Positions 14,939-32,960 of a DNA stretch of 54,115 nt are shown here, one piece after another; position 1 is the stretch's first letter; each line of letters opens with the position of its first letter. This DNA is from Gemmatimonadota bacterium (GTDB lineage Bacteria; Gemmatimonadota; Gemmatimonadetes; Palauibacterales; Palauibacteraceae), in the NCBI GenBank assembly GCA_048060725.1, contig JBGMQU010000006.1, positions 1 through 54,115 of the forward strand, written 5' to 3'. Under the pieces are notes generated by a model. It was not told the DNA's origin, made no database searches, and saw only the letters and a list, made by a program, of their open reading frames with translations. The position numbers and the translations under genes are program-made.

Positions 14939-15126
14939 CGGCGGGCCTCGAAATCGCCCTGCTCCTCGAGGGCCTGACCGACCTCGCCTTCCCGCTGGCG
15001 GCGCAGGGCCCTGTAGAGGCCACCCCCGACCACGAGCAGCAGCAGGTACGGCATGGAGGCCAGAAAGAGCATGCTCCAGAAAAAACCGTCGATGACGCCG
15101 CCGTCCATCGCTCCCATCGGATTCAT
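14935..15126 (-). CDS. Small single-TM protein (63 aa)
   Basis: ATGA overlap with the heme o synthase stop and GTGA overlap with the next gene. One TM segment (FFWSMLFLASMPYLLLLVVGGGLY). Confidence 0.65.
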   Translation of the reverse strand: MNPMGAMDGGVIDGFFWSMLFLASMPYLLLLVVGGGLYRALRRQREGEVGQALEEQGDFEARR

Positions 15127-16067
15127 ACCTTGTCCACCGTCAGAGCCAGAAGGAGGAGCGGAAGGTAGATGACGGAGTACTTGAACACCTTCCGGGCCAT
15201 CCCCGCATCGGCGGTCCGCGCGAAAGAAACCGACCGCCACAGAAACACGAGTCCGAGCGCCAGCGCCGACAAGAAATAGATCGGTCCGGCGATTCCGATC
15301 ATCGTCGGGAGCAGGGTTACGGGCAAGAGCGCGAGGGTGTACACCAGCGTCTGATGACGCGTGCGAAATGCGTTCTGGTCCCCCACAGATAGCATCCGGA
15401 TGCCGGCGGCCTCGTAGTCGTCCCGGAGGATCCACGACAGCGTCAAGAAGTGGGGCAATTGCCACAGGAAGAGGATCGCGAAGAGCGCCCATCCCCCTCC
15501 GCCGAGAGCCCCCGTCGCGGCGGTCCAACCTCCGAGGGCCGGAAGCGCCCCCGGAAGTGCTCCCACGACCGTCGAGAACGAGTGTACTCGCTTGAGCGGG
15601 GTGTACATGAAGTCGTAGCTGGCGAAGGTGGCGAACGCGAGCGCGGCCGTGAGGAGGTTCGTGAACACCGCCAGGTACAGGATACCGACCGCCGCCAGGA
15701 CGCCCGAGAACACGGCCGCCGGCATCGTGCGTATGCGGCCCGACGGAAGCGGCCGGTTTCGGGTCCGCTTCATGAGCGCGTCGACGTCACGCTCGATCAC
15801 CTGGTTCATGGCGCTGGTACCGGCGGCCACCAGAGCCACGCCGAAGATCGTATGCGCGAACAGGACTACGTCGAACGCGCCGGAGCTTCCAAGGTAGAAA
15901 CCGGCGGCTGCGGTTACCATCACCAGGCCGGTGATCCGCGGCTTGGTCAGTTCGAGGTAGTCTCCGACCCTCGACCGTAGCGCCGACGCCGACGTAGACG
16001 TAGAGGAGCCTCGGGCCCGCTCCAACGTCGCGGCGGCAGCCCCCTTCACAAAGGTCTCCGAGTCCAA
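15123..16067 (-). CDS. ctaB: Protoheme IX farnesyltransferase (heme o synthase)
   Basis: Motifs YLELTKPRI, NQVIERDVDALMKRTRNRPLPSG, YTPLKR and WQLPHF. Confidence 0.95.
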   Translation of the reverse strand: MDSETFVKGAAAATLERARGSSTSTSASALRSRVGDYLELTKPRITGLVMVTAAAGFYLGSSGAFDVVLFAHTIFGVALVAAGTSAMNQVIERDVDALMKRTRNRPLPSGRIRTMPAAVFSGVLAAVGILYLAVFTNLLTAALAFATFASYDFMYTPLKRVHSFSTVVGALPGALPALGGWTAATGALGGGGWALFAILFLWQLPHFLTLSWILRDDYEAAGIRMLSVGDQNAFRTRHQTLVYTLALLPVTLLPTMIGIAGPIYFLSALALGLVFLWRSVSFARTADAGMARKVFKYSVIYLPLLLLALTVDKV

Positions 16068-16080
16068 CCGTGACTCCAGA

Positions 16081-16362
16081 TCAGACGTATTCCATCATGA
16101 TCACGACGATCATGATCGCGACGGCGGGGAGAGGTGCCAGCGCCACCAGGCGAAGGCGCATCGGCTCCCACTTCATATGCATGAAATAGGCGGCGACCAG
16201 AAGCGCCTTCCACACGGCCATGATCAGAAGCGCGGTGACGACAATCCCTTTCGAGATGGGCATGGTTGCTATGCCGACCTCGGCCGCCGTAAGGATGAAC
16301 AGGTACAGCCAGATGAGCATGTAGTTCGGAGCTTTGTGCTCTCCCACTGCATGATCGCTCAT
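16081..16362 (-). CDS. ctaF: Cytochrome c oxidase subunit IV family
   Basis: LTAAEV...KALLVAAYFMHMKWE. Three TM segments. Confidence 0.88.
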   Translation of the reverse strand: MSDHAVGEHKAPNYMLIWLYLFILTAAEVGIATMPISKGIVVTALLIMAVWKALLVAAYFMHMKWEPMRLRLVALAPLPAVAIMIVVIMMEYV

Positions 16363-16414
16363 GAAACGGCTCCGTTCCGCGAAGGAGGACGCGTCGATTC
16401 TCGCAGTGTCGTCA

Positions 16415-17035
16415 TCAGATCAGGTAGACGACGGTGAACAGAATGATCCAGACCAGGTCGACGAAGTGCCAATATAGGCCCAACACCTCCAGGCCGTGAG
16501 TGTTGTGGGCGCCCCACCGACCTCTGAAGGCGTGGAACGAAGCCCACGCCAGACACACCACGCCGAGAAACACGTGAAACCCGTGGAACCCCGTCATGGT
16601 GAAGAACGTGGCTCCGTAGAGTCCGGCCTTCGGGGTGAAGCCGTGGCTGCCCTGCCACTCTCCGTGGAGCACGAGCTCGGTGTACTCGAACACCTGGACG
16701 CCGAGGAACATCGCACCGAGCACCGTCGTAGCGACCAGATAGAGCTTGATGCCTTTCTGGTCGTCGGCCTGCGCCGCCGCAAACGCCTTCACCATCGTCA
16801 CGGAACTGCAGATGAGCAGGAACGTATTGATGGCCGTCACGGGGATGTTCAGAACCTCGCCAGGCGTGCCCCACGTATCCGACGCGCCGAAGCGCAGCAC
16901 GATGTACGATCCGATCAACCCCGCAAAAAACATGACCTCCGAACTGAGGAAGATCCACATCCCCACCTTTTGGGTGTAGACATCCAGACCGCGTTCGTGG
17001 GTCCGTCCAGCTGTCGCCGCAGCGGCGTGGGCCAT
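16415..17035 (-). CDS. ctaE: Cytochrome c oxidase subunit III
   Basis: Motifs GMWIFLSSEVMFF, NTFLLICSS, FFTMTGFHGFHV and YWHFVDLVW. Confidence 0.95.
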   Translation of the reverse strand: MAHAAAATAGRTHERGLDVYTQKVGMWIFLSSEVMFFAGLIGSYIVLRFGASDTWGTPGEVLNIPVTAINTFLLICSSVTMVKAFAAAQADDQKGIKLYLVATTVLGAMFLGVQVFEYTELVLHGEWQGSHGFTPKAGLYGATFFTMTGFHGFHVFLGVVCLAWASFHAFRGRWGAHNTHGLEVLGLYWHFVDLVWIILFTVVYLI

Positions 17036-17104
17036 TCGCGTGTCCCCTTTTTCTCGGTTTAGAGGGGCGCTGATCCCCTCGGCGGTTCGTTGATCGGGGT
17101 GCGT

Positions 17105-18868
17105 CTAGTGCTCGCCGCCTGCCGGCGAAACCACGTCGGGTCGTTCGTTCTGAGCGAGCCAGTCTTTGTCCTCCACGTCCGGGTGGCTGTACTCGTGCGG
17201 ACCGTGGTAGACGACCGGAGTCTCCGCCCAGTTCCCGTGCTTCGGCGGCGAGGGAGTCTGCCACTCGAGCGTCGTGGCGCGCCACGGGTTCGCGTCGGCT
17301 TTCTTCCCCTTGAATATGCTCCAGAAGAAGTTGAAGGCGAACAGGAATCCGGACAGGTAGAGTGCGAAGGCGGAGTAGGTAATCAGGGCATTGGTGCCCT
17401 GGACTCCCTGAAGGTGATTGTAGCCCGTGGAGTCATAGATCCGGCGCATCATCCCCGCCATTCCGACGCCGTGCATCGGGAAGAAAACGAGGTTGAAGAA
17501 GACGAGCGTCAGGACGAAGTGAATCTTCCCGAGCGTCTCGTTCATCATCCGCCCGAACATCTTCGGGAACCAGAAATAGATTGCCCCGAAGAGGGCGAAC
17601 AGGCTGCCGCCGAACAGCACATAGTGGATGTGCGCGACGATGAAGTACGTGTCGTGAATGAAGATGTCGACCGGGGTGGAGGCCATGAAAATTCCGGACA
17701 GACCGCCGATCGCGAACATGGCCACGAAGCCGATGGCGAACAGCATCGGCGTGTGGAAGTGAAGATTCCCGCGCCACATCGTCCCCATCCAGTTGAACGT
17801 CTTGATCGCGGACGGGATCGCGATGAACATCGTCGAGATCGTGAAGCTCAGCCCGAGCATGGGGTTCATCCCGCTCTGGAACATGTGGTGGCCCCAGACG
17901 ACGAACCCGAGGAACGCGATGCTGATGATCGCCCACACCATCGCGTGGTACCCGAAAATCGGCTTCCTCGACCCGGCGGCGAGAATCTCGGACGTGAAGC
18001 CCATCGCCGGAAGAATCAGGATGTACACCTCCGGGTGACCGAAGAACCAGAACAAGTGTTGCCAGAGAAGCGGCTGTCCCCCGCCCTCGGGCAGGAAGAA
18101 CGTCGTCCCGATCGTCTGGTCGAAGATCAGCATGATCCCGGCGGCCGATAGAACGGGCATGGCGAGCAAGCCAAGAATCGCCGTGATGAACAGCGCCCAT
18201 ACCGTAAGCGGCATGCGGAACCAGGTCATCCCGGGCGCCCGCATGTTGATGACGGTGGTGATGTAGTTCACCGACCCGAGAATCGAGGACAGGCCGATGA
18301 GCACCACGCTGAGAAGCCACAGCACCTGGCCGAGAGCCACCCCGGTCAGGTCAGGTCGCGCGCTGAGCGGAGCGTAAAGCGTCCAGCCGGCACCGGCGGC
18401 CCCGCCCACCACGAAGAAACTCAGGAGGGTGAGGATTCCGGCGGGAATCATGATCCAGAAGGAGATCATGTTCAGACGCGGGAACGCCATGTCGTCTGCC
18501 CCGATCTGGAGCGGGATCAGGTAGTTCGCGAAGACGCCCACCAGCATCGGCATGATGGCGAGAAACACCATGATCGATCCGTGCATGGTCACCAGAGAAT
18601 TGTAGAACTCCGGCAGGATGTATCCGCTCGACACCATCGTCTCGGGCAGCAATCCCCCGAGTGGCAACGTCCGGTCGGGCCAGGCGATCTGGAAGCGCAT
18701 CATGATCGCCAGAAGCCCACCGATCATGAGGAAGAACAGGGTGAAGATGAGAAACTGGATCGCGATGACTTTGTGATCCGTGGAGAACATGTACTTCCGC
18801 AGGAACGATTGCGGATGTTCCTCATGCAGGATCGCTCGACCCGTGCCTTCGGCTACGATCGTGGCCAT
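17105..18868 (-). CDS. ctaD: Heme-copper oxidase subunit I, type A1
   Basis: Motifs STDHK (D-channel), TMHG, WFFGHPEVY, VWGHHMF, AIKTFNW (K-channel) and HDTYFIVAHIHY. Confidence 0.97.
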   Translation of the reverse strand: MATIVAEGTGRAILHEEHPQSFLRKYMFSTDHKVIAIQFLIFTLFFLMIGGLLAIMMRFQIAWPDRTLPLGGLLPETMVSSGYILPEFYNSLVTMHGSIMVFLAIMPMLVGVFANYLIPLQIGADDMAFPRLNMISFWIMIPAGILTLLSFFVVGGAAGAGWTLYAPLSARPDLTGVALGQVLWLLSVVLIGLSSILGSVNYITTVINMRAPGMTWFRMPLTVWALFITAILGLLAMPVLSAAGIMLIFDQTIGTTFFLPEGGGQPLLWQHLFWFFGHPEVYILILPAMGFTSEILAAGSRKPIFGYHAMVWAIISIAFLGFVVWGHHMFQSGMNPMLGLSFTISTMFIAIPSAIKTFNWMGTMWRGNLHFHTPMLFAIGFVAMFAIGGLSGIFMASTPVDIFIHDTYFIVAHIHYVLFGGSLFALFGAIYFWFPKMFGRMMNETLGKIHFVLTLVFFNLVFFPMHGVGMAGMMRRIYDSTGYNHLQGVQGTNALITYSAFALYLSGFLFAFNFFWSIFKGKKADANPWRATTLEWQTPSPPKHGNWAETPVVYHGPHEYSHPDVEDKDWLAQNERPDVVSPAGGEH

Positions 18869-18925
18869 GTCACCTCGTCTCGTGGTTCGCTGTGCGCATT
18901 CGACCGCCGCGTGAGCAGGTCCGCA

Positions 18926-19591
18926 CTAGTTTCCTGCTGCCTGCGCGGCTGACCATGCGTCGAAATCGGCCCGCTCGTGTATGACCACCTGCGCGGCCAT
19001 TCGGTAGTGACCGAGCCCGCACAACTCCGCGCACGCGATCTGGAACTCGCCGGTTCCGGTTGCCTCGAACCAGATCGGGATCGTCATGCCCGGCACGGCG
19101 TCCTGCTTCACCCTCAGTTCGGGCACGAAGAACGAGTGAATCACGTCCTCGGAGCGCAGGCGCACGATCACGGGCTCGTACGCCGGGAAATGAAGTTGGT
19201 TGCGGACGGTAAAGTCATCGGCCGTGTCGATCTGCCCGTCCGGGCCCGGGTAGGTGATGTTCCACTCGAACTGCTTCGCCACCACGGAGAAGGTGAGCGC
19301 CCCATCGGGAAACGTGCCGCTCCCTCGAATGCTCGCCCACACGCTCCCGGAATAGATCCCGAGCGCCCCGATGATGAGCGCCGGAATCGTGATCCAAATG
19401 ATTTCGGCCTTCTTCGAACCGTGCGTGTAATGGGCCTTCCGTCCGTCGCGCGTGCGGTACTTGATCATGAACCAGACGATGCCGGCCTCGACCAGGACGA
19501 ACGCGGTTCCCGTGAGCACCATGATGATCCAGAACAGGAGGTCGATGACCTCGCCCTGGGTCGAGAAGTTCGGGGGTAGAAACCAGGTCAC
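18926..19591 (-). CDS. ctaC: Cytochrome c oxidase subunit II (CuA)
   Basis: Two TM segments, QFEW, DVIHSF, KQDAVPG and CAELCGLGHYRM. No cytochrome c fusion. Confidence 0.95.
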   Translation of the reverse strand: MTWFLPPNFSTQGEVIDLLFWIIMVLTGTAFVLVEAGIVWFMIKYRTRDGRKAHYTHGSKKAEIIWITIPALIIGALGIYSGSVWASIRGSGTFPDGALTFSVVAKQFEWNITYPGPDGQIDTADDFTVRNQLHFPAYEPVIVRLRSEDVIHSFFVPELRVKQDAVPGMTIPIWFEATGTGEFQIACAELCGLGHYRMAAQVVIHERADFDAWSAAQAAGN

Positions 19592-19639
19592 GGGCTCTTC
19601 TCCTCGGTGACGCTTTGGTTGGAACGGAGGAGAGGCGCG

Positions 19640-20518
19640 TTAGCGCCCCGCCACTCCACTCGGCGAACCGCGGTTCTCCATGCCGTTCTCGCCGCGGTCG
19701 ATCACCAGCGGCTCACCCAACGGTACGTCCGCCCCGGCCATGTCGGCGCTGTAGTCGAAGGAGAGCGATGCCGAACCACCGGCCGTGACGGTGACGCTGG
19801 CCGACATCGTTCCAAACACTTCGTGCCAGGCCTCGGCCGTGTACGTGCCGGCGGGCACGTCGGAGATCGTGAAGCTGCCGTCGGGTCCGGAAACCGCGAA
19901 GTACGGGTGGTCGACGACGCCGATGAATGCGGTCATCCAACCATGCACGTCGCAACGGACCGGGATCATCACCTCGGCGACCGCGAACCTCTGGGTGCTC
20001 TCCATCCCTGCCTTGGGCTGGCTGGTGTTGAAACCACGATTGTCCGTGGGGCTGGCGTTGATGTTGTGGAGCATGTCGTCGGAATTCGTGATCTTGAGGT
20101 CCTGACCAACCTGGACGCCGAGGACATGCGGCGAGTAGCGGCAGTTCTTCTGGTCTATCGAGACGGAACCGCTCGGCTCCGGCGCATTCGAGACGCCCGT
20201 CAGGTACACGAACACGTTCGCGAGCTTGCCGTTGTCCGCGAGAACCTCGATCGACATCGGGCCATCGGCGTCGTAGGCCGCGGCACAGTCGGCCTCTGCC
20301 GACATGTCGATGGCTGTCGCCGCCGGAACGTCACCGGCGAAGTTGATGGTTCCGGAAATCGTGCCAACCGTCGCCGGATCGATCGCGGTCGCGGCAGGCG
20401 CATCGCCTGCGCCGGCATCGCCGGCGTCGGCGGATCCCGCGTCACTACCGCCTCCGCAGGCCGTGATGACCGCGGCGGCGACAAGCAGCGGGATCTTCTT
20501 GAAGACGTCGTTACGCAT
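19640..20518 (-). CDS. Lipoprotein with cupredoxin-like and carboxypeptidase-regulatory-like domains
   Basis: Lipobox ITA-C, then IDQKNCRYSPHV, NSDDMLHNIN and RCDVHGWM (H...CxxHxxM). GGAGG RBS. Confidence 0.78.
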   Translation of the reverse strand: MRNDVFKKIPLLVAAAVITACGGGSDAGSADAGDAGAGDAPAATAIDPATVGTISGTINFAGDVPAATAIDMSAEADCAAAYDADGPMSIEVLADNGKLANVFVYLTGVSNAPEPSGSVSIDQKNCRYSPHVLGVQVGQDLKITNSDDMLHNINASPTDNRGFNTSQPKAGMESTQRFAVAEVMIPVRCDVHGWMTAFIGVVDHPYFAVSGPDGSFTISDVPAGTYTAEAWHEVFGTMSASVTVTAGGSASLSFDYSADMAGADVPLGEPLVIDRGENGMENRGSPSGVAGR

Positions 20519-20582
20519 GTGGTTCCTCCCTGTCAACTATTCATGGCGGTTACGTCGAGTTTTGTCGCTTTTCCGTGCAGGG

Positions 20583-22136
20583 TCAGGCCCTTGCCCGACG
20601 TTGAGCACGGCGCACGAGAACGAGCCCAAAGGCTCCCGTCAAGAGGATCATCAGAAGCGGCGTGACCACGACCGCGTTCGTCGGTTCTTCCTCCAGCAGC
20701 ACGTAGTACCACGTCGAGACAGAGGCTCGCTTGCCCATTTCACCGCTGGATCCATCCCAGACAGCGAACGCTATGGGGATCGCGGATCCCTCGGCGAACG
20801 TAAGGCCGTCGCTCTCGGCTTCGATCGGACGGCGGAGGTAGAGCGTCCACTGCCCCGCCTCCCATCTCGCGTTTCCCTCGAGCTCTCCCTCGAGGGGTTC
20901 GACGGATCCGAAGCCCCGGGCCCGACCCTCACCGACTCCCGACGCGGTGTTCCAGGTCCACAGATAGACAGGGTTTCGACGGTCTCCATGGAGGAAGTAT
21001 GGACGCTCCGCCCCCTCTGGAATCTCGAACGGAAACTGAATGTTGATCGCATCGGGCGGGCGGACCGTCGGCGACCCGGCACTATCCACTGCCAGAGGGT
21101 CCATGCCATCGAGGTCGAGCGTCGCCTGTAGTTTGGTCTGCCACTCGTCCCAGCCGGGGTCAGGGCTGTCCGACGGGTCCGACCACCGAACCCGAAGTAC
21201 GAGGTCTGTACCGTCGTGCATCCCCTGAACCCACACGCCGTCGACGGTTGGTGAAAAGTTGCGGGGTCTCTGGACCACCTGACCGGCCAACGGGAAAAAG
21301 AAGGAGTCGACGACATCCCACGCCTCCGCCGAACCGTCCGCCGGGAGCCCGGCGTCGGGGGCCCGGCCGACCCTGACGACCTCCCTCACTCGTGGCATCT
21401 CACGCGGACCGAGGCTCGAGACGAACTGGGCCAGGTGCCAGACCTCATCCGGCGACACCACACCAGAGTTCATCGCGTCGATCGCGGAGGGCATCGGAGT
21501 ACCGTCCAGGCCGGTGAGGACGCGCGTATGAATGTCCTCGACGGACCCCCCTCCGTTCAGTGCCCAGGCCTCCGTGAGATCGGCCGCCCGAATCGGAAAC
21601 CCCCGCCAGTCCTCCAGCGTCGGCGCCGACGTACCGTCTCCCCGCCCGGCCACGCCATGGCACGCCTCGCATTCGAGCGTGAGGTAGGCCTCGGCTCCCA
21701 CGGCAAGCGAGTTCCCGCCCGGTCCCGGATCGGCTCCGAAGTCCAGCGCCTCGGGCGCCGGGCCGGCCGCGAAGAAGCGCGAGAAGCTCTTGATGTACGC
21801 TATGATGTCCCGTTTCTCCTGACTCGAAAGATTGGGCCATCCCGGCATGGTCGTGCCCGGGAGCCCCTTCTCGAGGACCGCCAGCAGGTCCGCATCGGTG
21901 GGCAGTTCTCCGTTTCCGGTCGTGCGGACCTGGTACCGGGCCTGAGAGAAGTTTCGGGGGCGTGGGAGCATCGAAGCGGCGGCCGACCCGTCGCCGAGCC
22001 CCTCGGCGCCGTGGCACTCCACGCACCACCTGTCGTAGACGGTCTTCCCGGCGTCCGTATCCTGCGCAGTGAGCGGTGCGACCAGCGCGACGCACAGTGT
22101 CGCAGACAGGAGACCCATCCTCGAAATTGACATCAT
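20583..22136 (-). CDS. Diheme cytochrome c fused to an EbdC/NxrC-like (DOMON-type heme-binding) domain, with C-terminal TM anchor
   Basis: Signal peptide, CVECH and CEACH, GLPGTTMP and GTPMP. EB_dh-like LRVRWSD, PDAINIQFP and AFAVWDGS..E. Confidence 0.82.
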   Translation of the reverse strand: MMSISRMGLLSATLCVALVAPLTAQDTDAGKTVYDRWCVECHGAEGLGDGSAAASMLPRPRNFSQARYQVRTTGNGELPTDADLLAVLEKGLPGTTMPGWPNLSSQEKRDIIAYIKSFSRFFAAGPAPEALDFGADPGPGGNSLAVGAEAYLTLECEACHGVAGRGDGTSAPTLEDWRGFPIRAADLTEAWALNGGGSVEDIHTRVLTGLDGTPMPSAIDAMNSGVVSPDEVWHLAQFVSSLGPREMPRVREVVRVGRAPDAGLPADGSAEAWDVVDSFFFPLAGQVVQRPRNFSPTVDGVWVQGMHDGTDLVLRVRWSDPSDSPDPGWDEWQTKLQATLDLDGMDPLAVDSAGSPTVRPPDAINIQFPFEIPEGAERPYFLHGDRRNPVYLWTWNTASGVGEGRARGFGSVEPLEGELEGNARWEAGQWTLYLRRPIEAESDGLTFAEGSAIPIAFAVWDGSSGEMGKRASVSTWYYVLLEEEPTNAVVVTPLLMILLTGAFGLVLVRRAQRRARA

Positions 22137-22933: not shown

Positions 22934-22945
22934 GCGGATCGCCGT

Positions 22946-23767: not shown

Positions 23768-23834
23768 GCGCGCGGACCCTCCGATTTATTGACATCTTGC
23801 TCGAGGTTATCGCGTCTACTACGTGTGGTGGCAA

Positions 23835-25601: not shown

Positions 25602-25632
25602 CGCCTCTCGCTTCACCCGGCCCCCCGGGCGA

Positions 25633-27015: not shown

Positions 27016-27022
27016 GCCTTCG

Positions 27023-29245
27023 TCACTCCGCGTTCCCTGCCGGCTCCGATGGGGCGCTCTCCGTCGACTCGTCTTCGAGTTCGGCTTTCGCGAAATGCTC
27101 GATCTCGGCCATGGCTTCCACCGGCGAAGGCATCTTGAAGTCGACCGGGCAGTCCTCGACGGACTGCTCGATGTCGCGGATCGGGCAGCGCGTCACGCCC
27201 GATGCCTTGGCCTCCTCGATGAACTTCCTCATCTCATCGCTGATCCCATCGACTCCGGCGGCCTCCGCCCTGGCCTGTTTGGCCTTCATCTCGTTGAACA
27301 TCACGAGCATGGTGTCGAGGTCGAACTCGTCCGCGGCGATCATGGCGTCTTTGTTTTCGTCCATCACCTCGGATGTCACGCGCCACAGATCGGAATTGCG
27401 CGCGAATCTCTCGACGGTATTCCGCGCGAGGGGTCTCGCGATCAGGGGGACTCGGGCGAGCCGGCCGAACGCCTCGTACGTCCACACGATGGGGTCGCTC
27501 ACCGTCCGGTCTCGTGGTATCTCGTTGTCCGTGACCGGACAGCGCGCCATCACCGGCGGCGGCGTCTCGAAGTGGTCCGCATCGGCAGTTTCGACCACCG
27601 TTCGTTTCATCGATTCCTCCGCCTTGACCTCGGCCAGGGCGAGTTCTTCGGCATCACCGATCCCCATCACGAGTTGCATGTGGGTGGGGAGCAGCTTCTT
27701 GATCGCCTCATCCAGGCGCTCCTTCGTCACGACCGGGAGTTCGTCACGACTCTTTATCTCCGGGACGTCCCCGTTCGATCCGTTCGCGTTCGCCGCCTCG
27801 ACGACCTCCCGAATCGAGGGGGCGGTACCGGTCTCGAGCGCTGCGGCCGCCATCCCTGCGGTTCCGTTGTCGTGGTCCGCCTGGTGCTTCTTTTCATCTT
27901 TCGGGTTCGGGACGAACGCGGCCGCGTACTGGCTGCCGGGACCGTGGTTCTCGAGGACAAATTCTTCGACGGCTTTTCTCGCGATCCCCAGCGCAAAGGG
28001 CGGGACGCGAAGAATCCGCACCTCCGCCTCCGGGGCCCACTCGAGACCCGTCTCGCCGTCTTCCTCGATCCACGGAATCTCCTCCGGCCGTACATCGGTC
28101 GTGCCGATGAGAAGGACGTTGCAGTCGGTCAGGCGCACCAGGTTGTCGGCCTGCGACCCCAGATCGGTTCCCTCGATGCGGTGCGAGCCGTGCCGGGCGA
28201 TCACCATGAGCGACGGTTCGATCTCGTCGGCCCACTTGAGCATGGCGTCGAACGGTTTGCCAATCAGGACCTGCGTCTCGGTCTCGACGTCGGGATACTC
28301 GCTCGCCATGACCTGTGCCCGCTTGAGATTGGCCTTGCACAGCCGCAGGAGACCCTTGTCGATGATGTTGTTGTGAAGTTCCTCCTGCTCCTCGAACTTG
28401 AACACCTTCGACGCCTGGACCGAGAGCACGTCCTTGATGTTGTTAAAGACGACGTGGTGGTACTGGACGTCGAACGCGCTCGCGATAAACAGTTTGGCCC
28501 CGTACTCCTGCGCCATCTCGAGTGCGACCCGGAGGCCTTTGTACGCGTACGCCGATCCGTCCACACCGATCAGCCAGTTGCCCCCTGCAAGTGGCGTTTG
28601 ATTGCGAACGATCAATACGTCCCTGTCGATTCGGCGAACGGCCCGGGCGACGACTCCACCCAGCTGACTCCTCTTCTGGCGGCCGAGCCCGTGCGCGCCC
28701 ATGACGACGAGGTCGTACTCCCGGCCGGACGTGCCGGCGAGCTTGTCTTCCTGTTCCTCTTCTTCCGCGATGAGCCGTCCGTTTTCGCCCATCTGTACAT
28801 CACTTCGCTGCGTCTCGCTGCCGTCGTAGTTGTGGGCGATGTTCGGATCGAAACCGATCAGGCTGGGGAGCCGTCCACCTCCACGGTTCGACTCGTTGAT
28901 GATTTCCTCGTAGTTGATCCCCTCCAGCAGTTGCCGCGTCGCGTTGACGCCGGCCTCGGTGCACCGCCTGTGGAGGAGGTCGAGGAAACTGTCCGAGATG
29001 AGTTGAAGTCCCTTCTCGATCAGCTTGTCGTGGATCTTACGCTGCCGACGAATCTCCGCCGGTTCCTGGAACTGTGCGGGCAAACCGATCTCGAGCTGCC
29101 GAAACCGAATGTCGTGGAGTCGCGCCGCATATACATGGGACCCCGTGAGGCGGCCTTCGGAAAGCTTGCACACCTCGATCGCCCGGTCGACGGCCCAGTC
29201 GGACTCGAGGGAGTTGTCGACGGGTACGAGAAGCTCTCGATACAT
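27023..29245 (-). CDS. Tandem universal stress protein domains plus two PCP_red-like domains
   Basis: USP motifs LLVPVDNS, LVVMGAHGLG, IGVDGS and IARHG..LGSQA. PCP_red-like WAPEAEVRILRVPPFA and WTYEAFGRLARVPLIAR. Confidence 0.85.
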   Translation of the reverse strand: MYRELLVPVDNSLESDWAVDRAIEVCKLSEGRLTGSHVYAARLHDIRFRQLEIGLPAQFQEPAEIRRQRKIHDKLIEKGLQLISDSFLDLLHRRCTEAGVNATRQLLEGINYEEIINESNRGGGRLPSLIGFDPNIAHNYDGSETQRSDVQMGENGRLIAEEEEQEDKLAGTSGREYDLVVMGAHGLGRQKRSQLGGVVARAVRRIDRDVLIVRNQTPLAGGNWLIGVDGSAYAYKGLRVALEMAQEYGAKLFIASAFDVQYHHVVFNNIKDVLSVQASKVFKFEEQEELHNNIIDKGLLRLCKANLKRAQVMASEYPDVETETQVLIGKPFDAMLKWADEIEPSLMVIARHGSHRIEGTDLGSQADNLVRLTDCNVLLIGTTDVRPEEIPWIEEDGETGLEWAPEAEVRILRVPPFALGIARKAVEEFVLENHGPGSQYAAAFVPNPKDEKKHQADHDNGTAGMAAAALETGTAPSIREVVEAANANGSNGDVPEIKSRDELPVVTKERLDEAIKKLLPTHMQLVMGIGDAEELALAEVKAEESMKRTVVETADADHFETPPPVMARCPVTDNEIPRDRTVSDPIVWTYEAFGRLARVPLIARPLARNTVERFARNSDLWRVTSEVMDENKDAMIAADEFDLDTMLVMFNEMKAKQARAEAAGVDGISDEMRKFIEEAKASGVTRCPIRDIEQSVEDCPVDFKMPSPVEAMAEIEHFAKAELEDESTESAPSEPAGNAE

Positions 29246-29494
29246 GGCACTCCCGTTCGCGCGGTGGATGGAATTCCCTGCGGAACGGGCGCGCCCCTCC
29301 CCCCGGGAGTCGGCAACGCCACCTCACGCTTTTCTTACTCGGCCGTCACGACGGCCCGGGAATTCTATGGATCTATGAAGCCGATACGAGCCGAGAGCGG
29401 CTCGCCGGATCGCTCTCAATCACCCCGCCGAGATACCGAGCGCCGTAGGGCGCGTGAGGAAGGTGGGGTTGCCCCCCACGATTGTCAAAGCCCC

Positions 29495-30223
29495 TCAACC
29501 AACGTTCGGCCACTCCAATCTCCGGGTCCATACGCGAGCCAGAACTGCAACCAGAAGGGCGGCGATCACGGCGACGAGAAGTGCGGGAAACCACCCTTCC
29601 GAAGGAGCGCCGCCGGATGCCTGGACGCCTGCGAGAGCCTCCTGCAACGGCCGGTACGGGTTCCACCGGGCGACTTCACGGGTCCACCCCGCCACGGGAG
29701 TGCGGAAGAATCCCGCGAAATGAAGGAGCAGCAGCGAGACTGCGGCGCTCACGAGGGCGGCCTCTGCGAGCGACTGAACGATCGCCGCGAGGATGCGGCC
29801 CAAGATGTTGGCTGTGGCCAATGCCACGACCATGGCAACGGCGAGATCGCCGAGATCTTCTCCGGTCGCGGTGCCGGCCGTCCACACGAGGACGATCGTG
29901 ACGGGCAACAGCTGGACGATGTCGAGTGCAGTCCCCGCAAGGACCGCCTCCGCGAACCATCGTCGACGCGAATAGCCGGTCAGGAAGATCGCGTCGAGCC
30001 AGCCGGTACGCGCATCGCGGACCGTAGGGATGGCCGAACCGAAGGTCGCGAAAAAGATGAAGAACACGCCAAACACCGCGGTCCTGTGCGGGGCCGCCGC
30101 GTCGCTCAGGGCCACCGGAGCGAGGAGCAGCATAGGTACGGCGACGTTCCAGACGAACAGACGCTTCCGAGCCAGGGCGGTGCGCCACGCGAGAGACCAG
30201 ACCGTCACGACGTCCTCCGCCAT
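29495..30223 (-). CDS. ABC-2-type transporter permease
   Basis: About 6 TM segments and RWNPY. Immediately downstream of the ABC ATPase. Confidence 0.75.
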   Translation of the reverse strand: MAEDVVTVWSLAWRTALARKRLFVWNVAVPMLLLAPVALSDAAAPHRTAVFGVFFIFFATFGSAIPTVRDARTGWLDAIFLTGYSRRRWFAEAVLAGTALDIVQLLPVTIVLVWTAGTATGEDLGDLAVAMVVALATANILGRILAAIVQSLAEAALVSAAVSLLLLHFAGFFRTPVAGWTREVARWNPYRPLQEALAGVQASGGAPSEGWFPALLVAVIAALLVAVLARVWTRRLEWPNVG

Positions 30224-31164
30224 GCGTCCGTCTTCAGGCGCTGTCCGGTCACCTGGAAATAGGCCTCCTGCAAGCTGGGCTCGCGGACGCGCACGGCCGT
30301 GACATGCGCCCCCGCTCCGAAGAGCCATTCCAGGAGCCCGGGAAGCGAGGTGGCCGGATCGGGGGTGCGAAACGTGAGGTGATCCCCGTCCTTCTCGACT
30401 CTGGTGATCCCTGCCGGCAGTTCCTCCGGGACGCTCCCCCCCGGGTATCCGCCGGGAGCGAACGAGATGTCGATTCGCGCGTCGTCCGACAGGTTCGCGA
30501 CGAAGCTGGAGGGGACGTCGACCTCCAGGAGCCGCCCGTCCGTCATAAACCCCACACGATCACACAGGGTCGCCGCGAACGCGGGGTCGTGGGTCGACAG
30601 GATCACGCACTGGCCGCCATTCGCCGCCGCGCGCACCTCGGAACCGAGACGTTCCCTTGCGGCCGGGTCGAGCCCCGCGAGCGGCTCGTCGAGCAGGAGA
30701 CAGTTCGCACGCGCCGCGAACGCGATGGCCAACCCCAGCCGATGCTCCGTGCCGCGAGAGTAGCTGGAAACGGCCCGTTGGCTCGCGTCGTCCAGGTCGA
30801 ACCGGGCAAGGGCCTCGTCAGCGCGGCGCGACGCCTCCGTGGGAGCCTCTCCCCTCAGTCGCAACAAGGCAATCGCGTTGTCTCGCCCGGACAGCCAGCC
30901 CTGGAACACCGGGCGATCCAGCGCGAGGGACGGAGGGTTGTCGCCGCGCAGCGCAATCTCGGGAGTCGGTCGGTGTGCAGCCCGGGCGATGGCCCGGAGC
31001 AGGGTTGTCTTCCCGCATCCGTTCGGCCCGAGAAGCCCCAGTACCGCGCCCCGGTCCGCGGCCAGCGACACATCCCTGAGCGCGACCGTCCGGTCGGGGT
31101 AGACGAACCCCAGTCCCGAGACGCACACCTCCACCTGGTCACCTGAGGGCGCGGCGATGGTCAC
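30205..31164 (-). CDS. ABC transporter ATP-binding protein
   Basis: Walker A GPNGCGKTT, degenerate signature YSRGT, Walker B LLLDEP, STH switch. The GTG overlaps the ferredoxin stop. Confidence 0.9.
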   Translation of the reverse strand: MTIAAPSGDQVEVCVSGLGFVYPDRTVALRDVSLAADRGAVLGLLGPNGCGKTTLLRAIARAAHRPTPEIALRGDNPPSLALDRPVFQGWLSGRDNAIALLRLRGEAPTEASRRADEALARFDLDDASQRAVSSYSRGTEHRLGLAIAFAARANCLLLDEPLAGLDPAARERLGSEVRAAANGGQCVILSTHDPAFAATLCDRVGFMTDGRLLEVDVPSSFVANLSDDARIDISFAPGGYPGGSVPEELPAGITRVEKDGDHLTFRTPDPATSLPGLLEWLFGAGAHVTAVRVREPSLQEAYFQVTGQRLKTDAWRRTS

Positions 31165-31406
31165 GGGACGATCGCCAACTCGTCCTCGAATACGGTGATG
31201 GCGTCGACGGGACACGAGGCGCACGCGGCGAGCAACTCGTCGCGTCCCACCGATTCCGGCGCGGCGAACACGGCGATCCCCTCGTCGTCGAGACGGAAGG
31301 CACCCTCCGATTCCGTGACGCAGTCGCCAAAGCCGACGCACAGATCGCGGTCGATCTCGATGCGAAGCGGGCCCACCACCCGGAGGTTGCGTGCGTCGTC
31401 GCTCAC
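31161..31406 (-). CDS. Ferredoxin, probably single-cluster [3Fe-4S] type
   Basis: IDRDLCVGFGDC...CPVDAI, with the second Cys position replaced by Phe. Confidence 0.85.
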   Translation of the reverse strand: MSDDARNLRVVGPLRIEIDRDLCVGFGDCVTESEGAFRLDDEGIAVFAAPESVGRDELLAACASCPVDAITVFEDELAIVP

Positions 31407-31858
31407 ATGCCCTCGAGCCCGAGGTCGGTGCGGGCCTGATCCATGATCTCAGGAGTCAACTCCGCGATTCCGTGATCCCGCGCGTACTCCGTGTAGATCT
31501 TCTTCACCATCCCCCTCACGAAGGATGGGACGTGGCCCAGACGCTCGACCGCCTCCACCGACCATGTCACTCGTAGAGGCACCTCGGAGCCGCCGGTCGG
31601 CCCCGCCTCCTCGAATGCATCGTCGCGGCCGGTGGCCACGCCCGAACGGATGCCTTCGAACGGGGCCTCCGGGACCGTTCGGCCTCCGACCTTCACGCCC
31701 AGCGAACTCACGAGTTGCGTTTCCATCGGGTTGGTCAACATCGCCATCATCCGTTTGCACGATGGACAGCGGAAGACGGCCGTCAGCGTACCGTCACCGG
31801 GCAACTGCCGCTCCTCGAATGCCATCTGTTCGTCGCAGTCGACGCAAAGAAATTTCAC
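31403..31858 (-). CDS. Zinc-ribbon plus PCP_red-like domain protein
   Basis: CVDC and CPSC. C-terminal WSVEAVERLGHVPSFVRGMVKK...LTPEIMDQAR. Confidence 0.8.
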   Translation of the reverse strand: MKFLCVDCDEQMAFEERQLPGDGTLTAVFRCPSCKRMMAMLTNPMETQLVSSLGVKVGGRTVPEAPFEGIRSGVATGRDDAFEEAGPTGGSEVPLRVTWSVEAVERLGHVPSFVRGMVKKIYTEYARDHGIAELTPEIMDQARTDLGLEGM

Positions 31859-32766
31859 CGGGCACCTCCGGCCGTCTCGTCGGACGCCATCGACTCCGCG
31901 AGCGTGCGGGCCAGATGCGCGAACACTCGCGCCGTCTCCGACTCCTCGCGCAGCCAGGTGGAAAGACGCCCTTCCTCGGCCGCGTCACCCAGGTCAGGGT
32001 CCAGGGGCAGACGCGTCAGTACCGGAACATCGAACCGCGCGGACAGGTCGTCTCCCGCGGCGCCCGCGTGAAGCGGTCCGACGTGTCCGCAACCTCCGCA
32101 CCGGTATCCCGACATGTTCTCGACGATGCCGAACACCTCGATTCCCCGACGCGCACAGAGATCCAGCGACCGCGCTACGGCGTCGCCCGAAGCGCCCGAC
32201 GGAATCGTCACGGCGAGGACCCCGGAGAGGCCCGGGACGAGCTCGTGGAGGTCGACCAGTCGCCGGGTTCCCGGGGGCAGGTCTACGAGAAGGACGTCCA
32301 GGCTGCCCCACGCCACGTCGGAGAGGAACTCCCGGAGGGCGCCGCGTTCCTGCGCACCTCGCCAGACGAAGCCCGCCTCGGCCGGCTCATGCCAGTCGAC
32401 CGATGCGTCGTCGCGGACGAGGAGCGCCATCGACATCAGCGCGATCCCTCCTGCAGACCGGGCGGGCTCGATGTCGGTGTCCGACTGGGCAAGGCCGCCG
32501 CGCGCAACGCCGAGCATCCGTACGAGGCTCGGCCCGTTGAGATCAGCGTCCACGACTCCCACCCGCATGCCGCGGTGGGCCAACGCCGTCGCCACCGCTG
32601 CCGTCACGAGGCTCTTTCCCACACCGCCCTTCCCGCTCATGACACCGACGACGGAATCGACCGCTGCGAGCCGCTCGTCGACACGCTCTTGCTGACGTCC
32701 GACCTGATCACCAAGGTCCGACGACCCACCCTCGAGTTCTGCGTACGAGCGTATCTTCATGGCCAT
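31855..32766 (-). CDS. Mrp/NBP35 (ApbC-like) Fe-S carrier ATPase
   Basis: Motifs SGKGGVGKS, DADLNGPS, DLPPGT and VENMS..CGGC. Confidence 0.9.
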   Translation of the reverse strand: MAMKIRSYAELEGGSSDLGDQVGRQQERVDERLAAVDSVVGVMSGKGGVGKSLVTAAVATALAHRGMRVGVVDADLNGPSLVRMLGVARGGLAQSDTDIEPARSAGGIALMSMALLVRDDASVDWHEPAEAGFVWRGAQERGALREFLSDVAWGSLDVLLVDLPPGTRRLVDLHELVPGLSGVLAVTIPSGASGDAVARSLDLCARRGIEVFGIVENMSGYRCGGCGHVGPLHAGAAGDDLSARFDVPVLTRLPLDPDLGDAAEEGRLSTWLREESETARVFAHLARTLAESMASDETAGGAR

Positions 32767-32960
32767 GAGTCGGTTACAGATCCCATCCGGCCTGCGCCAG
32801 CATCCAGAGGTTTATGACGATCACGACCAGCGCGGTAAGAGTGCCCAGAATACGAGGGCCGCGACAAGCGCGCCTGACACGAGACCCTCGAGATACTCCA
32901 CCGGGCCACGACTCGTCCTCTCTCCCTGGCTGAACCGCGAGAGAGCCCTGCGCGCGACGC

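Follow-up and report, generated by a model that had tools for sequence, protein, structure and literature searches.

What does a bd-like haem protein do in a single long operon that also encodes maturation genes and an aa3 oxidase, and from where would it draw its electrons? The operon belongs to a marine Gemmatimonadota bacterium and comprises 16 co-oriented genes on the minus strand at 15123-32766, with gaps mostly below 70 bp. All coordinates given here refer to that strand of the window, by which we mean the whole 54,115-nucleotide stretch of DNA analysed. Close relatives of this bacterium bear the name Ca. Palauibacter denitrificans. The gene list, order, domains and shared orientation described in the first-pass annotation were all recovered, and so was its statement on missing genes: no cydB, Rieske, cytochrome b, ACIII or molybdoenzyme gene was found within the window. 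A conserved 320-aa multi-pass membrane protein (13976-14938), encoded after CtaF or CtaB in many related loci, is a possible final member of the operon; it has no Pfam or NCBIfam match, and its atlas neighbours are all annotated as hypothetical.

The CydA-like haem membrane protein (23835-25583; 582 aa; PF01654, 74 bits) is a member of the published "bd-like / OR-N" branch. The Pfam match covers only profile positions 8-247 of 418, the N-terminal part, and the protein has neither a Q-loop nor a CydB partner. Its AF2 model (pLDDT 92.1) contains 14 helices, a signal-like N-terminal helix and 13 further ones. VIA Z scores against the CydA chains 7d5i_A, 5ir6_A and 6rko_A were 33.9 (rmsd 3.6 over 361 aligned residues), 33.6 and 32.3, so that, as modelled, the complete CydA fold is kept. 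At the level of sequence, phmmer matched the solved CydA chains at E 8e-8 only, confined to the first helices. The haem pocket is recognisable: H58, E145 and H226 correspond to H19, E107 and H186 of E. coli CydA and are at least 97% conserved in 115 sequences. On the other hand, the E. coli E99 position is taken by Y138, a Tyr that is invariant there, and the haem b595 ligand E445 pairs with S520 in a region where the alignment is not significant; to judge from these two positions, the canonical O2-reducing dihaem site appears not to be intact. Two more histidines, H168 and H258, are near-invariant; in the model they lie close to where helices 4 and 6 are predicted to end on the cytoplasmic side, and they could hold an extra haem. 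All the key residues are common to aerobe and anaerobe clades. The first-pass annotation had named as grounds for doubt a cognate cydB elsewhere and a grouping with canonical quinol oxidases. We searched the genome (94% complete) for CydB and found none, and the weak phmmer match, the absent Q-loop and the Tyr at the E99 position set the protein apart from those oxidases.

Three membrane-anchored cytochromes follow. The gene for the first, a dihaem cytochrome c with one TM helix and CxxCH at residues 60 and 185 (22946-23767; PF00034/PF13442), stands directly after the CydA-like gene in every surveyed locus. The second is a monohaem cytochrome c (22133-22933; PF13442) with two N-terminal hydrophobic helices (2 TM) and CxxCH at residue 165. 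The third (20583-22136; PF00034, PF13442) is a secreted dihaem cytochrome c fused to an EB_dh domain (NxrC/EbdC-like, with a putative haem b; PF09459, 56.1 bits; TIGR03477, 83.8 bits, below cut-off); in its 518-aa form, CxxCH lies at residues 39 and 157 and the C-terminal TM helix at 490-508. Docking of the monohaem cytochrome on residues 309-381 of the CydA-like protein was predicted with an ipSAE of 0.74, against 0.39 for the best control. Among solved complexes, 116 of 157 come up to the mark applied; among mismatched pairs, 2 of 215 do. At least 52% of contacts are shared between runs, and the partner pLDDT is at least 77. The model thus predicts that this cytochrome sits on the helices standing in place of the Q-loop. 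Next comes a lipoprotein (19640-20536; lipobox ...ITAC) with a type-1 copper (cupredoxin) domain and then a CarboxypepD_reg-like beta-sandwich. Pfam does not support the cupredoxin domain (Copper-bind, E 0.15). The assignment is upheld instead by H157, C195, H198 and M201, an H-C-H-M ligand set invariant in 34 homologues, and by the fold: the AF2 model (pLDDT 83.6) has Foldseek matches to amicyanin, pseudoazurin and plastocyanin at E 2e-6 to 1e-4 and TMt of about 0.7.

The remaining genes encode the oxidase. CoxB/CtaC, subunit II (18926-19591; TIGR02866, 166.6 bits, cut-off 147.7), carries a CuA motif, C-x-E-x-C-x3-H-x2-M, that can be read directly; it contains no CxxCH and no fused cytochrome c domain. 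CtaD, the haem-copper oxidase subunit I (17105-18868; PF00115, 510 bits; TIGR02891, 662 bits), has the motif GHPEVY. Both motifs are consistent with the A1 type originally proposed. Subunit III, CtaE, is a short 206-aa form (16415-17035; PF00510, 88.2 bits; NF050119, 133.8 bits); an overlapping 308-aa ORF (16359-17285) is spurious. CtaF, subunit IV (16081-16362; PF03626, 61.1 bits; TIGR02229, 41.1 bits, above cut-off), and the haem o synthase CtaB (15123-16067; TIGR01473, 291 bits, cut-off 210) complete the set. A linkage to cta genes that is not conserved had been the remaining ground for doubt in the first-pass annotation, but the linkage is conserved: of the 33 ortholog loci in Gemmatimonadota, 32 have the cta genes co-linear downstream of the cassette, and the 33rd is interrupted by the contig end. 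Elsewhere the arrangement differs. In Rhodothermales-type loci (L095, L105, L128) the aa3 genes precede the cassette on the same strand, in Latescibacterota (L086, L114) they are convergent to it, and in all five extended Acidobacteriota-type loci the convergent block reads ActC-ActD-ActF-cupredoxin-CtaD-CtaE-CoxB. The cupredoxin gene thus stands between ACIII and CtaD in the latter and between the cassette and CoxB-CtaD in Gemmatimonadota. Adjacency to aa3 in at least four phyla with differing gene orders is more than inherited synteny alone would lead one to expect.

The 5' part of the operon encodes a cytoplasmic accessory set. It begins with a P-loop Fe-S cluster carrier ATPase of the Mrp/NBP35 type (NUBPL, MrpORP-like; 31855-32766; PF10609, 209.9 bits; NF041136 MrpORP, 208.7 bits, below its cut-off of 450), whose gene accompanies the cassette across phyla. 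A small cytoplasmic protein (31403-31858) joins an N-terminal Zn-ribbon to a C-terminal PCP_red domain (PF08369, 46.7 bits); its CxxC motifs start at residues 5 and 31, and across 41 sequences the four cysteines C5, C8, C31 and C34 show at least 90% conservation. The ABC ATPase (30205-31341) and ABC-2 permease (29495-30328; PF00005 / PF01061 for the pair) are an optional insert, present in part of the Gemmatimonadota loci only (e.g. L018-L023, L028, L046, L047, L053). A cytoplasmic 740-aa protein with three Usp stretches and two PCP_red domains (27023-29245; PF00582, 108.9 bits; PF08369, 54.4 bits) has a homologue adjoining the cassette in most phyla, anammox bacteria included; the 'uspA' gene kustd1706 of the Kuenenia nxr cluster (PMC6423088) may be compared. 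Last is a radical SAM/SPASM protein with a C-terminal PCP_red domain (25633-27015; PF04055, PF13186, PF08369), related to NirJ2/AhbD (TIGR04055, 282 bits; TIGR04545, 271 bits; both below the cut-off of 500). Its orthologues occur in exactly 86 of 301 genomes of the phylum, namely those with the CydA-like gene (86/86). The other 215 gave no full-length match better than 8.6e-63; partial matches appeared in G180 (63% identity, residues 2-162) and G052 (44%, at a contig start). Together with the two further PCP_red proteins, the ATPase and, where present, the ABC exporter, the radical SAM enzyme would serve the O2-independent making or tailoring of haem and its delivery to the island; we infer a tetrapyrrole-directed chemistry for it.

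Taken as a whole, the locus may tentatively be read as a conserved terminal-respiration island consisting of a membrane complex, an A1-type aa3 oxidase and the cytoplasmic accessory set, in which the bd-like protein is a terminal reductase fed by cytochrome c or cupredoxin beside aa3; we put the chance of this reading somewhat below even. The membrane complex would combine the 14-helix bd-like protein, the three cytochromes, holding five c haems and one NxrC-like b haem, and the blue-copper lipoprotein. Quinol would be oxidised by ACIII, encoded elsewhere in the genome, and electrons would then enter the island's periplasmic wire of c and b haems and copper. One proposed exit would lead from the cupredoxin through CuA to the aa3 oxidase. 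At the other, the bd-like protein, with its retained CydA haem pocket, would reduce O2 or another oxidant accessible from the periplasm, using protons from the cytoplasm. Both the direction of electron flow and the substrate of the bd-like protein are presumed in this scheme. Of the two alternatives offered by the first-pass annotation, an electron-input complex and a second, cytochrome c-fed terminal enzyme, the evidence leans slightly to the latter, a choice that goes beyond sequence. Against it stand the apparently altered dihaem site, with Tyr at the E99 position, and the presence of the cassette in obligate anaerobes (14 Brocadiales loci), where an O2 reductase would seem out of place.

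In the strongest rival, which we regard as rather unlikely, the cassette would work as a quinol:cytochrome c/cupredoxin oxidoreductase, equivalent in function to complex III or ACIII. Menaquinol, oxidised in the membrane, would deliver electrons to the b haems, then to the three cytochromes, the blue-copper lipoprotein and the CuA of the co-encoded aa3; in anammox bacteria and nitrite oxidisers the flow would be reversed. The gene order mirrors this path, and the succession of bd-like protein, cytochromes, cupredoxin, CoxB and CtaD, with a c-less CoxB so regularly linked, gives the operon the look of a self-contained quinol-to-O2 branch, which also counts against the favoured reading; the genome's second oxidase, a caa3, has a CoxB with fused cytochrome c. 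The equivalent places of the cupredoxin gene after ACIII and after the cassette agree with such a role, as do the presence and expression of the cassette in anaerobic anammox bacteria (PMC6423088). Residues common to aerobe and anaerobe clades argue for a single, O2-independent chemistry, neither E99 nor E445 of the O2 site is retained, and H168 and H258 could carry the extra haem. The fold is also similar to those of the quinone-handling ActF (Z 22.8) and PsrC (Z 15.7), but this likeness is found in canonical CydA and CydB as well and may reflect only a common paired four-helix-bundle architecture. Against this rival, neither the Q-loop nor any of the known quinol-binding residues is present, according to Pfam coverage and a passage of PMC3578206. 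The lack of ACIII described at the outset holds for the window, but not for the genome (G000), which encodes ActB, ActC and ActD outside it. ActD occurs in 77 of 79 cassette genomes, so the cassette has no need to serve as a self-contained electron-input complex. Since nearly all members of the phylum probably have ACIII, finding it alongside the cassette in itself says little. No clean cassette genome without both ACIII and cytochrome b was found, the Act genes of G221 being broken or at a contig edge. A full ACIII in the same Acidobacteriota-type island would make a second complex III redundant. Finally, in one genome of the 79 (G224) the sole ActD domain is fused to the cassette dihaem cytochrome (141 bits), and the ACIII operon there encodes ActC, a cytochrome c and ActF without ActD. 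Read from sequence, this fusion is a link of the Rosetta-stone type that would put the cassette beside ACIII rather than in its place.

It is improbable that shared regulation explains the locus, with the cassette, aa3 and the radical SAM set as independent modules of a low-oxygen regulon, inherited together without electron exchange or contact, and the radical SAM protein as an AhbD-type O2-independent haem b synthase backing up ChdC for all haem proteins. A paralogous cassette on contig C34 does lack cta and radical SAM genes, as in G060, G127 and G290, and the anammox loci lack aa3. The radical SAM protein is nearest to AhbD and NirJ2, and haem synthesis in this genome follows the coproporphyrin route, with ChdC encoded elsewhere. 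Terminator-like sites in the operon numbered 12 against 9.9 +/- 4.1 expected, and no internal terminator or promoter was distinguishable from chance. However, aa3 adjacency recurs in different gene orders, the cupredoxin gene changes sides between cassette and CtaD, and the radical SAM orthologue is confined to cassette genomes, with nothing comparable in the other 215, and outside Gemmatimonadota it accompanies the cassette rather than cta. Least probable of all is that the bd-like protein reduces NO, nitrite or another non-O2 oxidant at the periplasmic face, for detoxification or respiration alongside denitrification enzymes: the cassette does occur in nitrite-handling clusters of anammox bacteria and nitrite oxidisers, the name of the close relatives fits, the genome encodes NarG and a divergent COX1-family protein (on C35), and the altered active-site residues permit a changed substrate, but no nir, nor or nos was linked to the cassette in surveyed loci, where 19 query proteins could detect only genes resembling them.

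The four-gene core, CydA-like protein, dihaem c, monohaem c and dihaem c fused to the NxrC-like domain, is kept co-linear across more than 10 phyla, in nearly all of the 80 loci surveyed. It is the same cassette as in the NXR clusters of Nitrospira, Nitrospina and anammox bacteria, and the likeness to the Nitrospira and anammox versions that had been pointed out holds in anatomy and comparison. The module is not, as had been thought, unrecognised: PMC3578206, PMC6606698, PMC9040806 and bioRxiv 10.1101/2021.01.16.426971 already describe the bd-like/OR-N cassette, and both functional alternatives are in print there. It is read as a terminal oxidase under the names 'OR-N' (bioRxiv 10.1101/2021.01.16.426971) and 'TO_1' (PMC9040806). 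On the other hand, the Nitrospira and Nitrospina authors prefer a quinone-linked role with reverse electron flow (PMC3578206, PMC6606698), a further point against the favoured reading. Our literature search found no biochemical data for cassette members. In the Kuenenia proteome from anoxic reactors, kustd1709, kustd1711 and kustd1713 were detected together with the neighbouring tetrahaem kustd1708, and the cydA-like kustd1712 was not, according to the tables of PMC6423088. The joining of bd-like cassette, cupredoxin and aa3 is a new context for a known bd-like unit.

The respiratory cluster lies at 15123-32766 on the minus strand and consists of 16 genes in the same orientation, which the first-pass annotation had listed correctly. 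The window makes up all of contig C6 of its genome (G000), which amounts to 3.87 Mb in 306 contigs with a completeness of 94%, and the nearest relatives of the window proteins carry the names Gemmatimonadota or Candidatus Palauibacter. In the order of transcription, the cluster starts with an Mrp/NBP35-type Fe-S carrier ATPase (gene 1), a small protein with a Zn-ribbon and a PCP_red domain (gene 2), an ABC ATPase and an ABC-2 permease (genes 3 and 4), a protein of 740 aa that combines three Usp stretches with two PCP_red domains (gene 5), and a radical SAM/SPASM enzyme with PCP_red at its C-terminus (gene 6). Then follow the four genes that we call the cassette: the CydA-like protein of 582 aa (gene 7), a membrane-anchored dihaem cytochrome c (gene 8), a monohaem cytochrome c with two hydrophobic helices (gene 9), and a secreted dihaem cytochrome c fused to an NxrC/EbdC-like EB_dh domain with a C-terminal anchor (gene 10). 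A lipoprotein (gene 11) and CoxB, CtaD, CtaE, CtaF and CtaB (genes 12 to 16) complete the cluster. The intergenic gaps are all below 70 bp except for one of 249 bp ahead of the Usp gene. The EB_dh protein most likely starts at 22136, and CtaE was assigned to the 206-aa ORF at 16415-17035 after a longer frame overlapping it had been rejected. Neither the promoter-like sites (1 versus 2.7 expected from shuffles) nor the terminator-like sites (12 versus 9.9) differed in number from chance.

Several neighboring genes were also recorded. At 13976-14938 (-) lies the gene for a conserved 320-aa multi-pass membrane protein, which comes after ctaB or ctaF in many of the related loci; it matched no Pfam or NCBIfam family and only unnamed Atlas clusters, and look-alikes occur in Binatota and Methylomirabilota. 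At the other end, the gene at 32759-33907 (+), divergent from the Mrp gene, encodes a protein of 382 aa whose C-terminal part is a haem-binding lipoprotein domain, HmuY (56.8 bits), so that a further haem-handling gene adjoins the putative haem-maturation set at the head of the cluster. The segment at 34859-42246 (-), just upstream of the respiratory cluster, holds a complete operon for a multisubunit Na+/H+ antiporter of the Mrp type (MnhE, F, G, B, MbhD/E, NuoK-like and three Proton_antipo_M subunits). MrpD-like subunits occur in some bd-like gene clusters, labelled 'TO_2' in the relevant section of PMC9040806. A gene for the selenocysteine elongation factor SelB is found at 52051-53622 (-).

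The CydA-like protein matched PF01654 in Pfam with 74 bits over profile positions 8-247 of 418 only, and its sequence similarity to solved chains is weak (E of 8e-8 for 5doq_A and 8e-4 for 6rko_A). In the alignment to 6rko_A, H58, E145 and H226 correspond to H19, E107 and H186 of E. coli CydA. The position of E99 is occupied by the invariant Y138, and the two proton-channel positions are separated by one residue fewer. A second alignment segment, which is non-significant, matches R523 to R448 and W526 to W451, both in the GRQPW motif, and S520 to E445. E99, E107 and E445 are therefore not all kept: only E107 persists, as E145, with Tyr at E99 and, by that non-significant segment, probably Ser at E445. 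We take E99 and E107 to form part of the proton channel and E445 to be a haem ligand. Among 115 homologues, H58, E76, Y138, E145, H168, H226, R227, H258, D260 and E287 were conserved at at least 97%, as were T359, P360, E369, H378, K390, R519, R523, W526 and H527. The roles of the three acidic residues are in part those given in the main text of the preprint by Murali et al. (bioRxiv 10.1101/2021.01.16.426971).

An AlphaFold2 model of the protein built from 76 sequences (pLDDT 92.1) contains 14 long helices including a signal-like helix at 10-29, and helices 304-332 and 336-357 occupy the place of the long periplasmic loop of CydA. The model superposed on the CydA chains 7d5i_A (Z 33.9, rmsd 3.6, 361 residues aligned), 5ir6_A (Z 33.6) and 6rko_A (Z 32.3), and with lower scores on CydB (7ose_B, Z 25.1), ActF (6btm_F, Z 22.8) and PsrC (2vpw_C, Z 15.7). 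Since the superposition on CydA runs along the full length, the protein is predicted to have the complete CydA fold, with helical hairpins in place of the Q-loop. That the model matches ActF nearly as well as CydB, and PsrC too, hints that bd subunits and quinone subunits of the NrfD type share an ancestor built of paired four-helix bundles. The same build, helices for the Q-loop, is found in the 'bd-like oxidases' as characterized in the corresponding section of Lücker et al. (PMC3578206). A search for CydB gave 0 PF02322 matches in the 94% complete genome, while the control search was positive in 9 of 14 reference genomes. The claim of the first-pass annotation that the subunit is CydB-less and apart from the canonical quinol oxidases thus held, given the absence of PF02322 matches in the genome, the weak similarity to solved chains, the missing Q-loop and the replacement of E99 by Tyr.

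The lipoprotein next to the cassette showed only a CarboxypepD_reg-like C-terminal sandwich in Pfam, with Copper-bind at E 0.15. Nevertheless, H157, C195, H198 and M201 (C-x2-H-x2-M) and a Cys pair were invariant in 34 homologues, and the model (pLDDT 83.6) matched amicyanin, pseudoazurin and plastocyanin in Foldseek with E of 2e-6 to 1e-4 and a target TM of about 0.7 (E 4.8e-6 and TMt 0.70 for amicyanin 2gb2; TMt 0.73 for plastocyanin 1pcs). Judged by this ligand set, His...Cys-x2-His-x2-Met on a Greek-key beta-sandwich, and by its predicted fold, the lipoprotein is a type-1 copper protein (amicyanin/pseudoazurin-like), in agreement with the earlier cupredoxin call. The oxidase is of the A1 aa3 type, with GHPEVY in CtaD and the CuA motif C-x-E-x-C-x3-H-x2-M in CoxB; GHPEV in helix VI is the defining motif of A1-type haem-copper oxidases. 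The cta products scored above the cut-offs of TIGR02866, TIGR02229 and TIGR01473 and at 662 versus a cut-off of 671 for TIGR02891, CtaE matched PF00510, and CtaA is encoded on contig C37. In a fast rough alignment of 82 sequences, no Met, Lys or His of the EB_dh domain was conserved at 93% or more, and the second CxxCH of the dihaem cytochrome was conserved at less than 93%. An ActD-like N-terminus of the monohaem cytochrome was also considered and rejected (no Pfam match at E <=0.01).

The rest of the genome supplies further respiratory enzymes. A true ACIII with ActB, ActC and ActD is encoded on contig C8, and the window contains no gene for the Mo-less Fe-S subunit ActB, for ActC/ActF of the NrfD type or for the ActA pentahaem protein; the window hence lacks ACIII, as stated earlier, and the genome has it. 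A second oxidase of the caa3 type, with a CoxB-cytochrome c fusion, is located on contig C140 (locus L008, 3319-5723 (-)), where the operon is preceded by a sulfite-oxidase-like Oxidored_molyb protein. On contig C5 (L015, 8426-12064 (-)), a 417-aa cytochrome b has a DUF4198 protein and a three-domain multicopper oxidase as neighbors and no Rieske gene beside it. No Mo enzyme is encoded in the window. Genome-wide, contig C233 carries a canonical NarG (TIGR01580, 1325 bits, above the narG cut-off), and the other matches to Mo-enzyme families are ActB, a Psr-like enzyme and Fdh-like fragments. EB_dh domains occur in the two bd-like cassettes only. Because the only NarG-type enzyme is a canonical NarG and EB_dh is confined to the cassettes, the genome has no Nitrospira-type NXR, and a genome check for nxrAB, as the earlier annotation had suggested, came out negative. 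The second bd-like cassette, on contig C34 (L006, 2209-9673 (-)), comprises two cytochromes c and a dihaem c-EB_dh protein and lacks cta and radical SAM genes; it is preceded by a cupredoxin-type gene of its own and by the gene of a beta-propeller protein that carries a PSCyt1 haem motif.

We then quantified how widely the arrangement is conserved. An ortholog of the CydA-like protein with 70-88% identity was found in 86 of 301 sampled Gemmatimonadota genomes, and 5 of the 86 (5 of the 301 sampled) also contained the paralog of the C34 type. The 36 loci fetched, from seven families, comprised 33 ortholog and 3 paralog loci. In all 33 ortholog loci, accessory genes, four-gene core and cupredoxin succeeded one another as in the window. 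CoxB-CtaD-CtaE-CtaF came next in 32 of them, followed by CtaB or a conserved unknown membrane protein, and the remaining locus (L051) meets a contig end; the linkage to the cta genes, whose conservation had been in question, is therefore kept. Fifteen further Gemmatimonadota loci from named records agreed where they were long enough. The unpublished genome G182 is counted in the tallies, and G057 and G157 are among the samples; no claim hangs on any single one of the three.

Across phyla, a profile scan with one genome per species yielded 80 loci, from Gemmatimonadota, NC10, Myxococcota, Acidobacteriota, Latescibacterota, Brocadiales, Nitrospinota, Rhodothermales, Calditrichaceae, Thermodesulfobacteriota and others. 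Wherever contigs were long enough, the genes stood in the order CydA-like, dihaem c, monohaem c, dihaem c-EB_dh. As a rule, the cassette is immediately followed by the Usp-PCP_red, Mrp, Zn-ribbon-PCP_red and radical SAM genes, and the 14 anammox loci have only a Usp-PCP_red homologue and an upstream cupredoxin nearby. A FastTree phylogeny of 115 sequences separated two clades. Clade A (91 rows) includes the window cassette, and its 49 Gemmatimonadota rows form one group with a support of 100; the copies of anammox bacteria and Nitrospinota fall into clade B, together with second copies of Myxococcota and the C34-type paralogs, including the C34 cassette itself.

Co-linear cta genes downstream of the cassette were seen in Gemmatimonadota only. 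A CoxB-like gene lies directly upstream in the Rhodothermales-type loci L095, L105 and L128, CtaE, CtaD and CoxB are convergent in the Latescibacterota loci L086 and L114, and a series ActC-ActD-ActF-cupredoxin-CtaD-CtaE-(CtaF)-CoxB runs towards the radical SAM end of the cassette in all five extended Acidobacteriota-type loci. This recurrence in differing arrangements argues for a functional tie between the cassette, the cupredoxin-associated aa3 oxidase and ACIII. ActD was present in 77 of 79 cassette genomes. The two exceptions were G185, which has a cytochrome b, and G221, whose ActC is split and whose ActF-like gene lies at the edge of a contig, so the 79 genomes offered no clean case of a cassette without any complex III.

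The radical SAM gene strictly follows the cassette. Its orthologue (E <=1e-138) was found in exactly the 86 genomes of 301 that carry the CydA-like ortholog, the two genome lists being matched by eye. The best full-length match outside these 86 genomes reached 8.6e-63 with 36% identity, and partial matches were found in G180 (63% identity, residues 2-162) and G052 (44%, at a contig start). The best NCBIfam matches, over the full model length, were to AhbD and NirJ/NirJ2, with which the protein has the radical SAM plus SPASM architecture in common. All of them stayed below the equivalog cut-offs (TIGR04055 282 versus 500 bits, TIGR04545 271 versus 500, TIGR04051 168 versus 515), so the protein does not qualify as AhbD or NirJ. 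It differs from these enzymes by the extra C-terminal PCP_red domain, and from their pathways in that no ahbABC or nirDLGH stands beside it and ChdC is encoded in the genome, outside the cluster. A literature search on PCP_red/PF08369 gave 9 matches, none of them relevant. Given the sub-threshold similarity to AhbD/NirJ2, the strict co-occurrence with the cassette and ChdC elsewhere, the accessory set would most simply be a haem synthase or haem-tailoring system that works without oxygen, with its PCP_red proteins as chaperones that bind tetrapyrroles, a chemistry that we infer.

Two observations bear on how the proteins may fit together. The complex prediction for the CydA-like protein and the monohaem cytochrome scored 0.74 versus 0.39 for the best control; runs agreed in at least 52% of contacts, and the partner pLDDT was at least 77. 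The score mark for such predictions is reached by 116 of 157 solved complexes and by 2 of 215 mismatched pairs, a calibration that holds roughly with our own alignments. The predicted interface joins residues 309-381 of the CydA-like protein (the inserted helices and a conserved loop with T359, P360, E369 and H378) to residues 27-65 of the cytochrome. We know of no similar solved complex, so memory is an unlikely source of this interface, and the prediction supports binding of the monohaem cytochrome to the inserted helices. The second observation comes from genome G224 (L028, 7599-9044 (-); also L146), where an ActD domain (141 bits) is fused to the dihaem cytochrome of the cassette. This fusion is the sole ActD match in that genome, whose ACIII operon has ActC, a cytochrome c and ActF and lacks ActD. 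The single fusion suggests that the cassette cytochrome sits against ACIII.

What the cassette does has been read in opposite ways. A terminal-oxidase role appears in the sections on OR-N (bioRxiv 10.1101/2021.01.16.426971) and 'TO_1' (PMC9040806), and a quinone-linked role in reverse electron flow in those of PMC3578206 and PMC6606698 that treat the cassette. We tentatively favor, at slightly less than an even chance, a terminal reductase fed by cytochrome c or cupredoxin and working in parallel with the aa3 oxidase. The CydA haem pocket and the cytoplasmic proton-path residue are retained, ACIII is present in the same island or genome (77 of 79), the G224 fusion points to ACIII, and a second complex III beside ACIII would be redundant in Acidobacteriota. 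That the cassette is instead a complex-III-like quinol oxidoreductase seems to us somewhat unlikely, although it would better accommodate the loss of E99 and probably of E445, the presence and expression of the cassette in anaerobic anammox bacteria, the gene order that traces an electron path ending in a CoxB devoid of a c domain, and the near-invariant H168 and H258 close to the cytoplasmic helix ends. From their helix positions in the model only, H168 and H258 are perhaps a cytoplasmic-side haem site. Rather unlikely, too, is an undescribed third kind of quinol:cytochrome c/cupredoxin oxidoreductase. In this reading, a hairpin for docking cytochrome c, perhaps together with that extra bis-His haem, would have been added to a CydA scaffold that has lost the Q-loop. 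The enzyme would form a supercomplex with a dedicated aa3 oxidase and would receive a haem that its own AhbD-like radical SAM enzyme produces or modifies with the help of PCP_red chaperones; operating in the opposite direction, it would account for the nitrite-fed reverse electron flow of Nitrospira and anammox bacteria.

Ever since Nitrospira and Kuenenia were first sequenced, the bd-like cassette has posed a puzzle, and it ranks within the 40 most highly transcribed gene sets of N. moscoviensis (PMC6606698). The cassette and its family are already known. Not in print so far, it appears, are the setting in an NXR-free heterotroph, the union with an A1-type aa3 oxidase in one operon, the connection to ACIII and the accompanying radical SAM/PCP_red genes: our literature search found no description of those contexts, although the supplements of Murali et al. 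may list some; among the matches listed for bd-like proteins in Gemmatimonadota the locus was not described, and no purified cassette member was found. In ordinary heterotrophs without NXR, the cassette is widespread (86 of 301 Gemmatimonadota, many Acidobacteriota, Rhodothermales, Latescibacterota and Myxococcota), tied to aa3 and ACIII genes and accompanied by a haem-type radical SAM set. With such carriers, the question leaves the slow-growing nitrifiers, and a culturable carrier would offer a genetic handle. The locus also hints that this bd branch may have a haem-maturation route of its own.

Compared with known systems, the window protein has the whole-length CydA fold in common with canonical CydAB(X) (E. 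coli 6RKO, Geobacillus 5DOQ/5IR6, Mycobacterium 7D5I; Z 32-34) and keeps equivalents of H19, E107, H186, R448 and W451. It differs in lacking the Q-loop and in having two additional helical hairpins together with a signal-like helix at the N-terminus, and its cassette partners are c-type cytochromes in a genome without CydB. A different resemblance, in the presumed electron path, is to the ACIII-auracyanin-oxidase chains of Chloroflexus and to the ACIII-aa3 supercomplex of Flavobacterium johnsoniae (6BTM). The likeness lies in a multi-haem c wire, a paired four-helix-bundle membrane subunit, a blue-copper or cytochrome c hand-off to aa3 and cta clustering. By contrast, the membrane subunit of the window is CydA-like (Z 22.8 to ActF versus about 34 to CydA), NrfD-type ActC/F, ActB and ActA are missing beside it, and the true ACIII is encoded elsewhere in the genome.

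The protein itself has the build of OR-N1/N2, which the main text of Murali et al. (bioRxiv 10.1101/2021.01.16.426971) describes as having 14 helices, no quinol site and often no second CydA-like gene. It has the N-terminal four-helix region (PF01654) with H58 as the His19 equivalent (at least 97% in 115 homologues), lacks the Q-loop and quinol site (the Pfam match stops at position 247, and the AlphaFold2 model has helices there), and shows 14 transmembrane helices in the model with the signal-like helix counted. As in that description, one residue fewer separates the channel positions, the conserved tyrosines Y150 and Y152 are nearby, no second CydA-like gene is present, and alternative electron donors are encoded alongside. 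The main text of the preprint contains 0 occurrences of Gemmatimonadota and mentions neither an aa3 linkage nor a radical SAM set. The four-gene core is the same as bd-like_3, alt_NxrC_2 and two cytochromes c in Nitrospira moscoviensis, as presented in PMC3578206 and PMC6606698, and as kustd1709-1713 in the gene table for Kuenenia (PMC6423088). In nitrite oxidisers and anammox bacteria, cupredoxin-like and Usp proteins are likewise nearby. The core with a TM-anchored alternative NxrC is co-linear with 14 Brocadiales loci, whose homologues are 43-46% identical in most loci and at most 55% over the best partial segment. Unlike the NXR-linked cassettes, the window copy belongs to clade A rather than to clade B with the anammox and Nitrospinota copies, and it lies outside any nxrAB cluster, in a genome without NXR; its same-operon partner is an A1-type aa3 oxidase.
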